The translations under genes were made by a program, and so were the position numbers. This document shows, piece by piece, positions 10,720-37,296 of a stretch of DNA of 64,000 nt; within the stretch, counting starts at the first letter, position 1; each line of letters opens with the position of its first letter. The notes under the pieces were generated by a model. It was given only the letters and a program-made list of their open reading frames with translations, did no database searches and had not been told where the DNA came from. This DNA is from an uncultured Gammaproteobacteria bacterium. GTDB taxonomy: Bacteria > Patescibacteriota > Microgenomatia > Levybacterales > UBA12049. Where the stretch lies: contig CAZEJU010000001.1 of the NCBI GenBank assembly GCA_964512695.1, positions 7,803-71,802 of the forward strand. The letters run 5' to 3'.

Positions 10720-10790
10720 GCTGGGAAGCCTGGATTCGAACCAGAATAAACGGATCCAAAGTCCGTTGTCCTACCATTAGACGACTTCCC
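10720..10790 (-). tRNA. tRNA-Gln (anticodon UUG)
   Basis: Hand-folded cloverleaf: UGGGAAG/CUUCCCA acceptor with U1-A72, discriminator G73, anticodon loop CUUUGGA, T-loop UUCGAAU. CCA is not encoded. Confidence 0.85.
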
Positions 10791-10798
10791 AGCACTGA

Positions 10799-11050
10799 CT
10801 ACGAATTTTCCCTTGTTAAGATACTATCCAAATACTTTCTTCCTTGTCCAGTTTTTAAGAACTTTTCTCTTTTGACAGCTTCGCTTCTTGTATAAAACTG
10901 CTCTTGATAAATTAACTTCCATGGTTTTCTTCCTTTTGTATATCTAACTTTACCAGCATTGTGTGCAGCTAAGCGTATAGTTACATTTTCTGCACTTCCT
11001 ACATACCGCGTTCCATAGGTTATACTTTTCGGTACATATGCATACAACAT
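10799..11050 (-). CDS. Small GIY-YIG nuclease-family protein
   Basis: MLYAYVPKS..TRYVGSAENVTIRLAAHNAG..PWKLIYQEQFYTRSEAVKREKFLKTGQGRKYL matches the GIY..YVG..R..H..E pattern. The ORF-track N-terminal extension runs through tRNA-derived DNA, so I trimmed it. Confidence 0.7.
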   Translation of the reverse strand: MLYAYVPKSITYGTRYVGSAENVTIRLAAHNAGKVRYTKGRKPWKLIYQEQFYTRSEAVKREKFLKTGQGRKYLDSILTRENS

Positions 11051-11090
11051 AGTATGATTCTCCGCCGAAGGCGGATGCGCCTCTGGCGCA

Positions 11091-11175
11091 GAACCAGAAT
11101 AAACGGATCCAAAGTCCGTTGTCTCAGCCGGAGGCTGATCTGCCTCTGGCATGACTACCATTAGACGACTTCCCA
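11091..11175 (-). pseudogene. Disrupted second copy of tRNA-Gln
   Basis: Identical to nt 1-20 and 22-57 of the intact tRNA-Gln at 10720..10790. A 32-nt GC-rich insert (11124..11155) sits in the D-loop, and the copy is truncated in the T-loop. Confidence 0.75.
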
Positions 11176-11367
11176 ACGCAAACTCCAAGTTTATATTTTA
11201 AATACCATATCTAAATACTTCTTATATACCCATGAGTTTAAAGCCTTTCTCTCTTAGCGCTTTGCTTCTCATTTCTTCATTGTTCTTTATAAAGCAACAA
11301 CCATTCGATAACTTCAAATGAAAGTTAAAATTAACGCTCTGTTATTATAGCATTGAAAACCGTATAT

Positions 11368-12504
11368 CTAAAGGGTAGGGGAGCTAGCTTCAAAATATTT
11401 CTTCGCAGCGATAGTCCATAACTGAGGAGCATTGCCTTTCTTATGGACTTTAAATTCATCTACATGAAGTAACTCCGGAAAATCATGCAAGTAAGGAATA
11501 ATTCGTTCACAAACCTCCATTACATGCGGTAAATTAAACTTTTTCGCTCCAAGGTGAATAAATGCTTGTTCGAATGGCCAGACAGTATTCGTATGGTATC
11601 CATAATGGTGAGCTATATCATGTTGGAGAGAAATATCATGAGTACTTAATGTAAGATAACCTCGTTTCGTTTCTAAACTTTTAGTAGCTTCAACTATCTT
11701 TCTTACTTTTTCGGTTTTTATCTGATCAGGTTCAAGATAATATAAAATATGTAAGTTATCAGATGAAACACCGGGGAAAAAACCTTTTTGGTCCAGGCCT
11801 ATATGGAAAACTCCACGTTTATCATCAAAAAGAATAAATAAATGCTTATTCATCTCTTCAGCTTTCTTTTCTAAATCTTTCGCACCAAGAAGCCGAGCCG
11901 CACTTCGTAATGCTTTCATATTTTGGACATGTGCAAGTGTAAAAACTGCTGGATATGCTGGTATACCATGCTCGCGGTTGGAGATGTGCGAATCTTTCCA
12001 ATATGTAACCTTTAAAGCGTACCGTTTGGCATCGGCATATTTCGGATCTTCTACGAAAAGGTAATTAACCAGATGATGAAGGATATATGTTACTGCTTTT
12101 TCTAAATAATGGTGTTGTTTTTTAATGAAATAATCATCACCAGTCATATTAAGATATTCGTCATGACCAATAAGAAATAGTGCTGTCGTATCACATGCAT
12201 TATAATCAGTAGAATAGCCTTCTGTTAAAAATGGAGGCATTTCATGAAATATTTTTCCTGGCTCTTCACCTGTCTTTGAATCTTTTTTTGTTCCCTGCAA
12301 AAAGGAACAGTAAATTAATTGATCTCTCAGCATCTTCGCATCCCGCATCAAAATTGCAGAGAGAATTCCGTCCCTTGTAAAATTAGCTGGATAGCTGGGT
12401 AATCCTGCGCTATAGAGTGTTATATGGTTCAACTGGATTACTAATGAGTCAAGCGCTTCTTGAACAGTCATATGATGCTCGTGAAGAGGAGAGTGCTTAT
12501 ACAT
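11368..12504 (-). CDS. Glycogen-debranching-enzyme-like (six-hairpin) glycosidase
   Basis: Segments such as STDYNACDTTALFLIGHDEYL and TYWKDS resemble the amylo-alpha-1,6-glucosidase (GDE_C) family. Recalled similarity only. Confidence 0.35.
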   Translation of the reverse strand: MYKHSPLHEHHMTVQEALDSLVIQLNHITLYSAGLPSYPANFTRDGILSAILMRDAKMLRDQLIYCSFLQGTKKDSKTGEEPGKIFHEMPPFLTEGYSTDYNACDTTALFLIGHDEYLNMTGDDYFIKKQHHYLEKAVTYILHHLVNYLFVEDPKYADAKRYALKVTYWKDSHISNREHGIPAYPAVFTLAHVQNMKALRSAARLLGAKDLEKKAEEMNKHLFILFDDKRGVFHIGLDQKGFFPGVSSDNLHILYYLEPDQIKTEKVRKIVEATKSLETKRGYLTLSTHDISLQHDIAHHYGYHTNTVWPFEQAFIHLGAKKFNLPHVMEVCERIIPYLHDFPELLHVDEFKVHKKGNAPQLWTIAAKKYFEASSPTL

Positions 12505-12599: not shown

Positions 12600-12694
12600 A
12601 CTTTTGAGCGGGAGACGGGTAGTCCGATTAACATCGGACTCTCTTCTTTGAGCGGGAGACGGATAGTCCGATTAACATCGGACCCTCTTCTTTG
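12600..12694. repeat. Two 45-bp tandem copies of the tRNA-Gly 3' end
   Basis: TTTGAGCGGGAGACGG(G/A)TAGTCCGATTAACATCGGAC(T/C)CTCTTC occurs twice. GAGCGGGAGACGG is the complement of the tRNA-Gly 3' acceptor/T-stem, and a GTCCGAT..ATCGGAC hairpin replaces the T-arm. Confidence 0.85.
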
Positions 12695-33278: not shown

Positions 33279-33422
33279 TTGACATTACACATGGGCTATC
33301 CTATAATCATTTATATGATACGACAAGCAGTAAATTTCTTTTTCTTTTTTACCCCACTCGCGGGGAGGTAATTTCGTGATCACACGAAATACTCTATACC
33401 CCGCATAAGGCGGGGTTTTTTT
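33279..33422 (+). promoter_or_regulatory. Consensus promoter plus Phe-codon leader-peptide attenuator
   Basis: TTGACA(33279)-17-TATAAT(33302). Leader ORF 33315..33371 = MIRQAVNFFFFFTPLAGR, with its ATG only 7 nt after the -10 (leaderless). CCCC/GGGG (33352/33362) 1:2 hairpin. GCGGGG (33360) can pair with CCCCGC (33399), versus terminator CCCCGC-auaag-GCGGGG + U7 (33399..33422). Confidence 0.8.
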
Positions 33423-37163: not shown

Positions 37164-37296
37164 TTGACGAACTGTATGACTCATGGTATATTGCTCAAAT
37201 ATATGAAATCCACTTTTTTAGTTTGTTGTGTTACAACTCTGCTTTAAGGGGTTGTAGTTATCGTGGAATATGCACCCCGCCAAGCGGGGTTTTTTT
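37164..37296 (+). promoter_or_regulatory. Promoter plus leader-peptide attenuator with tandem Cys codons (specificity tentative)
   Basis: TTGACG(37164)-17-TATATT. Leader ORF 37203..37247 = MKSTFLVCCVTTLL. GGGG (37248) immediately after the stop can pair with CCCC (37275), versus terminator CCCCGC-caa-GCGGGG + U7 (37275..37296), directly abutting the gene's ATG. Confidence 0.55.

Follow-up and report, generated by a model that had tools for sequence, protein, structure and literature searches.

In a 64,000-nt stretch of DNA (hereafter the window; contig CAZEJU010000001.1 of assembly GCA_964512695.1, positions 7,803 to 71,802) from an uncultured bacterium of the Patescibacteriota, an 83-aa GIY-YIG open reading frame (ORF) was located between a disabled partial copy of tRNA-Gln, split in its T-loop by a 30-nt double-hairpin module (HPHP), and an intact tRNA-Gln gene. 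With moderate confidence, this locus was interpreted as one copy of a compact selfish element that resembled the phage T4 homing endonuclease SegB in its logic and resided in tRNA genes of Patescibacteria and a few other phyla. Its components would be an approximately 80-aa GIY-YIG nuclease, HPHP at the dyad of GGTTC|GAATCC in a dead tRNA copy, and a working tRNA abutting the nuclease gene. An earlier note on this DNA had proposed a tRNA-targeting mobile cassette or a homing-endonuclease-like invasion, and this proposal gained support from the recurrence of the arrangement, the tRNA-specific duplicates, the tandem units, and the same-genome copies (see below). The same note had set the locus apart from ordinary 3′-end attachment-site (att) duplication, in agreement with the duplication of the tRNA 5′ part and the lack of an integrase.

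Organization of the tRNA-Gln locus

The minus strand displayed the order upstream flank, dead tRNA nt 1–21, insert, nt 22–54, HPHP, GAATC, atact, ORF, 7 nt, and tRNA-Gln, with the following features:

11175–11155, minus: TGGGAAGTCGTCTAATGGTAG, nt 1–21 of the disabled tRNA-Gln copy (acceptor 5′ strand, D-stem 5′ strand, and D-loop), identical to 10771–10791 of the intact gene
11154–11124, minus: TCATGCCAGAGGCAGA TCAGCCTCCGGCTGA, GC-rich double hairpin of 31 nt at the 3′ edge of the D-loop of the dead copy, reading TCaTGCC-AGA-GGCAGA plus TCAGCC-TCC-GGCTGA
11123–11091, minus: GACAACGGACTTTGGATCCGTTTATTCTGGTTC, nt 22–54 of the disabled copy (D-stem 3′ strand, anticodon arm, variable loop, T-stem 5′ strand, and T-loop TTC), 100% identical to 10738–10770
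11090–11061, minus: TGCGCCAGAGGCGCA TCCGCCTTCGGCGGA, HPHP, the 30-nt double hairpin between T-loop TTC and GAA (canonical C56/R57), reading TGCGCC-AGA-GGCGCA plus TCCGCC-TTC-GGCGGA
11060–11056, minus: GAATC, the 3′ half of the split T-loop of the dead copy, where tRNA similarity ends, 5 nt before the ATG
11050–10799, minus: GIY-YIG ORF of 83 aa (ATG at 11050, stop at 10801–10799) with a PF01541 match
10791–10720, minus: intact tRNA-Gln(UUG) (ARAGORN; Rfam RF00005, 63.6 bits; cloverleaf), 7 nt after the ORF stop

The two dead-copy segments were 100% identical to the intact gene (54/54 bases), and the window contained five hairpins with a perfect stem of at least 6 bp and a 3-nt loop, three of which fell within the 78 nt of 11061–11138; the likeness of the dead and intact tRNA-Gln and the clustering of hairpins are not due to chance. 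The downstream tRNA-Gln was the sole tRNA of this locus called by ARAGORN and Rfam, and the dead copy was uncalled. The partial copy, the 83-aa ORF, and the complete tRNA-Gln were all present at the place and in the order that the earlier note had given, and some of its details needed correction. The copy, put there at nt 1–57, covered linear nt 1–54 (canonical 1–56), and the T-loop, which indeed contained two hairpins, was split rather than truncated, since GAATC resumed after the hairpins. The D-loop insert did consist of two hairpins, with a length of 31 nt instead of 32 nt, and the gap from stop to tRNA was 7 nt instead of 8 nt. The loop triplets reported as gga, ucu, and gaa came from a plus-strand reading; on the tRNA sense strand, they were ucc, aga, aga, and uuc.

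A domain profile search revealed no integrase in the unit or among the neighbouring proteins, and an Rfam scan of the window returned tRNAs only, with no group I intron. Beyond the ORF locus, no HPHP was found elsewhere in the window. A terminator reading of the hairpins was rejected because no U-tract followed them. The ORF had as neighbours a helix-turn-helix protein, a GDE-like hydrolase (11368–12504, upstream), and a protein without an assigned family. The longest perfect short hairpins in the window were two others (33398–33416 and 37274–37290), which shared a 7-bp GC-rich stem ACCCCGC ... GCGGGGT.

The partial copy might in principle be a chimeric join of reads from the repeated tRNA, a danger also named in the earlier note. 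This explanation was considered barely credible, although the source is a metagenome-assembled contig, related loci L018, L019, and L037 have N-gaps inside repeats, and a Logan unitig (L083, run SRR8893623) stops within the repeat. The unitig began within tRNA-Gly (12739), stopped within the dead tRNA-Gln copy (11094), and was identical to window 12739–11094, covering the upstream flank, nt 1–21, the D-loop insert, and most of nt 22–54; its reads may be those of the contig itself. A second assembly thereby reproduced the left junction and the D-loop insert exactly, the same ordered architecture with locus-specific tRNA sequence was present in more than 60 independent assemblies from different projects, and the hairpin modules belong to no tRNA and cannot come from repeat collapse; the locus was thus not obviously an artefact. 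Many contigs ended at the ORF locus, and since contigs were often broken or N-gapped in the repeats, these elements constituted an assembly hazard in metagenome-assembled genomes of Patescibacteria.

Recurrence across genomes and the double-hairpin module

Relatives were collected by a scan of one genome per GTDB species (185,579 species genomes), giving 476 relatives; the loci were numbered from L001 onward, and the locus counts below rest on the best 80 of these 476 relatives, all from other genomes. The 80 loci were mostly from Patescibacteria, with a few from Margulisiibacteriota, Omnitrophota, Balneolaceae, and Bacteroidetes. A co-oriented tRNA within 100 nt of the ORF was found in 64/80 loci, by which the reservation in the earlier note, that the adjacency of GIY-YIG gene and tRNA might recur nowhere else, was refuted: (i) 55 loci had the tRNA downstream of the ORF (at most 100 nt, median 15 nt), namely 41 Gln, 7 Tyr, 4 Ser, and 3 Lys, and (ii) nine had it just upstream only, namely 7 Asn and 2 Ser. 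The other 16 loci had no tRNA; six of them ended less than 130 nt after the ORF, and one was N-gapped there.

A 5′ duplicate of the same tRNA was present upstream of the ORF in 35 of the 43 scored downstream-tRNA loci (score of at least 40, separate script). This duplicate usually spanned from nt 1 to T-loop TTC (GGTTC), was frequently perfect (54/54), and was specific to the local tRNA. The T-loop end was common to the Gln, Tyr, and Ser loci and to Lys locus L013; in Lys loci L028 and L057, with a T-loop other than TTCGAA, the duplicate ended at the ORF-proximal hairpin in the anticodon loop. Identity started at nt 1 (±2 nt) in single-unit loci.

HPHP was exactly 30 nt long in 50/59 T-loop cases and consisted of two 15-nt hairpins, each with a 6-bp stem and a 3-nt loop. 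It was flanked by GGTTC and GAATCC, the latter following the module in 35/36 distinct modules, and this order thus placed the insert between canonical C56 and R57, where the palindrome TTC|GAA has its dyad. Pairing was observed in 99.1% of cells, compared to 32–47% in slid controls; the inner GCC/GGC pairs were invariant and the outer three pairs covaried, with double changes in 6/12 pairs and 44 compensated cells, and 0/500 shuffles reached the observed score. The first loop was typically ARA and the second TYN, so HPHP had an equal form on both strands; alternatively, it could fold as one long hairpin taking in the flanking TTC and GAA. Hairpin density was 3.06/kb near the ORF versus 0.15/kb elsewhere in the same loci (20-fold). 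HPHP copies within a locus were identical in 8/11 pairs (mean 29.3/30), and between loci the mean identity was 23.3/30.

The dead 5′ fragments had 61 hairpin junctions: 25 in the T-loop, 14 in the anticodon loop, and about 11 in the D-loop, with the remainder mostly 1–2 nt from a loop edge. Anticodon-loop inserts were typically TYT|GAA within the Gln anticodon loop, and the motif common to the insert sites was TY|GA(A). The D-loop insert of the window was a 31-nt variant of HPHP, the same variant occupying the same site (GGTAG|GAC) in L018, and a longer double-hairpin insert of 36 nt was found at GGTAG|GAC in L002. The T-loop sequence TTCGAAT was present in 49/66 tRNAs adjacent to the ORF versus 12/39 other tRNAs of the same loci (Fisher p=1.6e-5); among the eight tRNAs of the window, only tRNA-Gln had it.

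The larger architecture extended beyond the duplicate. The Asn loci displayed the structure dead 5′ copy–HPHP–GAATCC–about 35 nt–intact tRNA–about 23 nt–ORF, followed by (A)GGTTC–HPHP–GAATCC plus the tRNA 3′ end. An HPHP-capped 3′ fragment was found beyond the intact tRNA in at least 17 of the 49 ORF-then-tRNA loci with enough downstream sequence; hence, in many loci, an old T-loop-split tRNA encloses the ORF and the working tRNA. The dead 5′ and 3′ fragments were compared for pairing with each other and with the live gene, and the acceptor strands were identical in the loci with both fragments. ORF units were in tandem in L005, L007, and L038, and ORF-less 3′ units were in tandem in L018, L019, L022, and L063, a pattern that would be expected from repeated T-loop insertion into a rebuilt tRNA. 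The conserved Thr-Tyr-Thr-Trp cluster carried a unit before Tyr in L005, L007, L009, and L015 (Thr-Tyr spacer of 552–1565 nt) and after Tyr in L022 (Thr-Tyr spacer of 47 nt). Same-genome copies at different tRNAs were mutual nearest relatives in an ORF tree, namely L043 (Tyr)/L044 (Gln), L042/L048, and L053/L062.

Dead and live copies were identical in 17/42 Gln loci (window included). The dead copies of L002, L017, and L065 had compensatory, allele-like differences that left the anticodon stem paired, and those of L067 and L072 had one-sided difference tracts, which suggests a crossover inside the fragment. The HPHP-side part of the dead copies in L002 and L006 resembled the tRNA-Gln of the window and L001, and the ORFs of all four clustered together. 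Judged from these sequence patterns, the tandem units, the same-genome copies at different tRNAs, and the allele-like differences between dead and live copies indicate mobility.

The hairpin search that the earlier note had recommended carried the module far beyond the GIY-YIG element. A scan of metagenome contigs with the exact HPHP pattern alone found it in at least 120 contigs (34–70% GC), compared to about 0.1 matches expected by chance (calculated); among the matches listed, a nuclease relative was encoded in 13/120. T-loop contexts accounted for about 30/130 of the matches listed, and the ORF-less T-loop copies often adjoined an intact tRNA (Arg, Ser, Val, Pro, Thr, Gly, or Glu); the other contexts were loops of stems like those of repetitive extragenic palindromes (REP), ending in CTAC, and short AT-rich repeats. 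The 5′ flank ended with T or C in 84% and the 3′ flank started with GA or AA in 80% of the matches listed, and a flanking inverted repeat of at least 5 bp was present in 18% of them versus 1.7% of controls.

Three further contexts of HPHP were recorded. In L089, L094, L100, L123, L139, L175, L192, and others, a GC-rich outer stem (GCAGGGCT ... AGCCCTGC or GACAGAGCT ... AGCTCTGTC) enclosed HPHP in its loop, with CTAC coming next; these contigs represented a REP-like repeat family of higher-GC genomes with no GIY-YIG gene nearby. L092 had three paralogous sites (1200, 3819, and 8419) in which HPHP came directly after an ATG preceded by a purine-rich stretch, where it may add 10 in-frame codons to the beginning of repeated genes. 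L181 (3050–3800) had an intact tRNA-Arg(UCU) with dead copies on both sides and no nuclease ORF in the contig; in the dead copies, an insert of about 85 nt replaced the anticodon arm, and HPHP was present in the T-loop.

Two further arrangements involved other hairpins. Directly 3′ of the window tRNA-Gly (12766–12694), two tandem 44-nt ORF-less units were found on the minus strand (12603–12693), each composed of a 10-nt 3′ flank, a 20-nt hairpin GGTCCGAT-GTTA-ATCGGACT, and a tRNA-Gly 3′-end copy A(C/T)CCGTCTCCCGCT; their logic was that of the dead 3′ tRNA fragments at other loci, with a different hairpin. L082 (1–400, GCA_964653195.1) had a different small GIY-YIG ORF of 88 aa (PF01541 match plus weak T5orf172 match), which started 3 nt after a tRNA with anticodon TAC (Val) and was followed by the hairpin GGTCCGGTGTACACCGGAC, resembling that beside the window tRNA-Gly, and by a 32-nt tRNA 3′-end duplicate with the T-loop intact. 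The proteins neighbouring this tRNA-Val locus had no similarity to those of the window, and the window tRNA-Val(UAC) (16481–16407) was unoccupied. The L082 locus suggests that there is a second family of mini GIY-YIG elements linked to tRNAs.

The GIY-YIG protein and the explanations of the locus

The protein matched PF01541 (44.8 bits, cut-off 22.6, E=1.6e-11) over residues 3–71 of 83, which left no room for an appended DNA-binding domain, and none such as those of I-TevI and the Seg proteins was found in the 83 aa. Residues Y16, G18, R26, H30, N31, and E62 were invariant and Y5 was nearly so in 26 homologues, and all of them were present in the window protein. All seven PDB profile matches (E of at most 0.01) were UPF0213 or SLX1 chains, including UPF0213 structures 1zg2 (8.5e-12) and 1ywl (7.9e-11) and SLX1 (2.9e-6); as judged by these matches, the protein is a bare single catalytic domain from the UPF0213/Slx1 clade of GIY-YIG. 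The homologues began at ATG 11050, and the deposited 129-aa product (P0001, NCBI), which used a TTG start at 11188 and was read through the dead tRNA copy and all four hairpins, was an over-extension; similar artificial N-terminal extensions (e.g., MVVVPEAD and PPLAEN) were seen in homologues P0004, P0020, and P0046. There was no match to NCBIfam, no match of the window protein to PHROG, and only a marginal match to PADLOC (E=0.0026), and Rfam gave tRNAs only; a known RNA, phage, or defence family was therefore unsupported. Exact look-ups of the 83-aa and 129-aa forms returned nothing, or nothing with DNA. Only two relatives were found on viral contigs, so phages were not the main carriers.

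Under the favoured homing model, the nuclease would break tRNA genes at or near the conserved T-loop motif, as phage T4 SegB does, and an occupied locus would serve as the repair template, the tRNA sequence itself providing the homology arms: the left end would pair with the dead copy, synthesis would traverse HPHP, then the ORF, then the 5′ part of the tRNA, and the newly made strand would anneal to the 3′ part. The product would be a dead 5′ fragment, with its target site interrupted by HPHP, plus an intact tRNA, and the essential gene would thus survive. The duplication would seem to start at nt 1 because homology begins there, the flanks diverging outside the tRNA. Re-cutting of the rebuilt tRNA would give rise to tandem or nested units, and repair would also carry HPHP into TY|GA(A) sites of a similar kind in dead copies, whose D-loop and anticodon loop could be interrupted without harm. 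The ORF would lack a strong promoter of its own and would probably be read through from the tRNA promoter. The homing model accounts for the nt-1 boundary, the fixed T-loop breakpoint, the allele-like dead copies, the tandem and nested units, and the TTCGAAT preference, and it was favoured.

Several points weighed against such homing. An 83-aa catalytic domain without a DNA-binding domain is not expected to achieve sequence specificity alone, and the portions of the literature consulted described Slx1-type enzymes as structure-specific and SLX1 as needing SLX4 for activity. The rebuilt tRNA retained an intact TTCGAAT, which would leave the host gene cleavable, and the acquisition of a new tRNA type by the homing route would first produce a chimeric, non-functional tRNA. 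The HPHP-capped 3′ tRNA fragment, present at many other loci, was absent in the window, which had the 5′ side only, and the ORF tree, built from about 80 residues, was poorly resolved. HPHP was without the ORF in 114/130 of the matches listed, and together with the GC range of the contigs this meant that HPHP was not simply part of the GIY-YIG element. Finally, no empty site was found for the window locus, the relatives being without synteny on that side. The GDE-like neighbour gave no relatives in the metagenome scan, and its closest homologues were about 63% identical. L081 and L082 kept tRNA-Gly and YkuD upstream and had different downstream genes and no tRNA-Gln, so no empty site was definable, and the earlier suggestion to look in relatives for tRNA-Gln without the cassette came to nothing at this locus.

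The wide distribution of HPHP without the ORF kept alive a model of hairpin-centred transposition, which was considered unlikely. HPHP would here be a mobile unit, like a REP or a miniature inverted-repeat transposable element, whose insertion targets are TY|GA(A) sites in the loops of hairpin or cruciform DNA, such as those of tRNA arms and REP-like stems. The Slx1-like GIY-YIG protein would mobilise it in trans as a structure-specific transposase, the ORF-bearing units would be the autonomous copies, and the tRNA duplications would result either from nicks staggered between loops or because a surviving copy is selected for. The occurrence of HPHP alone with few encoded nucleases among the matches listed, the flank bias and flanking inverted repeats, the concentration of inserts in tRNA loops, the identity of the closest solved relatives (UPF0213 and the structure-specific SLX1), the module subfamilies (30-nt and 31-nt types) common to distant loci, and the ORF-less HPHP-bearing dead fragments beside many tRNA types all fit this model. 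It does not by itself explain why duplication starts at tRNA nt 1; moreover, many HPHP copies were on GC-rich contigs whose available sequence encoded no related ORF, several REP-like contexts belonged to one repeat family and were not independent insertions, HPHP was confined to the ORF locus within the window, and we know of no GIY-YIG transposase of such a kind.

Two other explanations dispensed with T-loop cleavage or with mobility altogether. A plasmid-like, Campbell-type circle of roughly 400 nt (tRNA 1–56, HPHP, and ORF) could be excised and re-integrated by homologous recombination with the resident tRNA gene, the nuclease merely stimulating recombination or being a passenger. RecA-type excision between the 54-nt direct repeats that flank the ORF would restore an intact tRNA, the duplication was confined to tRNA sequence, the dead copies could be chimeric or allele-like, and Gln(UUG) and Gln(CUG) were both occupied in one genome (L003/L019 and L042/L048). 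The circle was nevertheless judged improbable, as it leaves unexplained the end of the repeat at the T-loop dyad with HPHP, the anticodon-loop hairpin of the two Lys loci, the TTCGAAT preference, the HPHP-capped 3′ fragments, and the acquisition of new tRNA types, and as the dead copy of L002, which differs from nt 4 onward, would need a crossover within nt 1–3. That the ORF is an ordinary host gene, i.e., a housekeeping repair or processing nuclease incidentally co-transcribed with tRNA-Gln amid fragments and hairpins left as neutral recombination debris, was regarded as very improbable. UPF0213 proteins are widespread in bacteria, the ORF was intact with catalytic residues invariant across lineages, and the protein had no phage-family match and only a marginal match to a defence model; a host gene would, however, hardly sit at different tRNAs (Gln, Tyr, Ser, Lys, and Asn) and on either side of them, occur in several copies per genome and in tandem units, show a patchy distribution (476 matches in 185,579 species genomes), be absent at the window position from the syntenic relatives L081 and L082, and coincide with so many contig breaks.

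A GIY-YIG nuclease homing to the tRNA T-loop is an already known kind of system, and there was a substantial chance that the element is more than that. In the searched literature, the arrangement was described nowhere, SegB, group I introns in Patescibacteria tRNA genes, and GIY-YIG-bearing rRNA inserts of the candidate phyla radiation being found instead; the tRNA-splitting GIY-YIG mini-element is apparently undescribed so far. It is conceivable, short of probable, that it represents a new, minimal class of mobile element, in which an approximately 80-aa Slx1-like GIY-YIG nuclease and HPHP split essential tRNA genes at the T-loop dyad with a replacement tRNA left or carried, so that by an addiction-like logic the host could hardly lose it, and that HPHP itself is among the smallest dispersed insertion modules known. 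HPHP could spread to TY|GA(A) in DNA-hairpin loops across many bacterial phyla, possibly mobilised in trans by the nuclease family. If the homing explanation is true, selfish DNA would have a place even in the most reduced of bacterial genomes, persisting there by invading the tRNA T-loop, the most conserved sequence available, and rebuilding an essential gene, and T-loop targeting of the SegB type would no longer be confined to phages, a far smaller nuclease carrying it out in cellular chromosomes. This raises the question of how an 83-aa domain would reach specificity, i.e., by structure, as a dimer, or through the hairpin. The covarying 30-nt double hairpin, widespread in metagenomes, makes its origin and mobility testable, and in practice such loci break assemblies and, in genomes of Patescibacteria, give rise to spurious ORF extensions (as in the 129-aa call) and to tRNA predictions that are false or missed.

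Comparison with known systems

Phages and genomic islands that integrate into tRNA genes carry an integrase, duplicate the tRNA 3′ end, and often have the att site in the T-loop; phage Ms6 reportedly integrates into a tRNA gene. The element shared with them the tRNA target, the T-loop crossover region, and a duplicated segment that keeps the gene intact, but its insert was about 380 nt, it had no integrase, and it usually duplicated the 5′ part; an integrase att-site reading was rejected on account of the missing integrase in the unit or neighbours and the duplicated 5′ part. The HUH (Y1) transposase of insertion sequences of the IS200/IS605 type and of REP with REP-associated tyrosine transposases (RAYT) was missing from the unit, in which the GIY-YIG gene was the sole ORF. 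The hairpins of the element abutted TY|GA(A), and some HPHP copies lay inside REP-like stems with CTAC.

Group I introns in Patescibacteria tRNA genes occupy position 35/36 in the anticodon loop (PMC13011429); such an intron was rejected for the window, given the lack of an Rfam intron match in it, the break in the T-loop, and the adjoining intact intron-less tRNA. UPF0213 proteins (COG2827; 1zg2 and 1ywl) resembled the window protein in having a single GIY-YIG domain of about 100 aa and gave, together with SLX1, the best profile matches. Eukaryotic SLX1 is, in the portion of its literature used here, a structure-specific repair nuclease activated by SLX4, and no tRNA-gene linkage or mobility of UPF0213 was found in the searched literature. 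The double-hairpin elements (DHEs) of chytrid and fission-yeast mitochondria are, according to the sections of the report consulted, short GC-rich double hairpins that are scattered through AT-rich DNA, RNA genes among it, differ little from species to species, and are suspected to be mobile (PMC10085805). HPHP has a comparable build (two 6-bp hairpins with 3-nt loops, in at least 120 contigs), a resemblance by structure and not a membership; the hosts differ, and those sections did not describe DHEs at a fixed tRNA-loop position or with a GIY-YIG gene (PMC10085805).

Endonuclease ORFs of fungal mitochondria (e.g., at cob and atp6) separate a functional gene from a displaced partial copy of it, with C-terminal duplications (PMC6279837). 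These shared with the element a rebuilt essential gene and a dead fragment left behind, but they involve protein-coding genes, LAGLIDADG or larger GIY-YIG ORFs, and duplication of the 3′ part, whereas the window element involved a 72-nt tRNA with the 5′ part usually duplicated in such elements and a breakpoint fixed to one loop.

T4 SegB is a free-standing GIY-YIG homing endonuclease in a phage tRNA gene cluster, with a 27-bp recognition site that contains the T-psi-C motif GGTTCRANTCC and thus implies sequence-specific DNA binding; tRNA-Gln is one of several tRNA genes that it cuts, and it drives its own inheritance together with that of the neighbouring tRNA genes (PMC2330249). The element likewise placed a GIY-YIG gene among tRNA genes, had its insert at the centre of GGTTCRANTCC, and preferred TTCGAAT tRNAs, and in the window and the 64/80 loci the nuclease gene lay in or beside its presumed target, as in free-standing homing endonucleases. 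SegB is a phage protein lying between genes, in contrast to the 83-aa UPF0213/Slx1-clade domain in cellular chromosomes, and the split target tRNA, the tRNA-specific duplicate, and the 30-nt double hairpin at the break are not reported for SegB. SegB was the closest characterised system, and a SegB-like homing model was therefore favoured.

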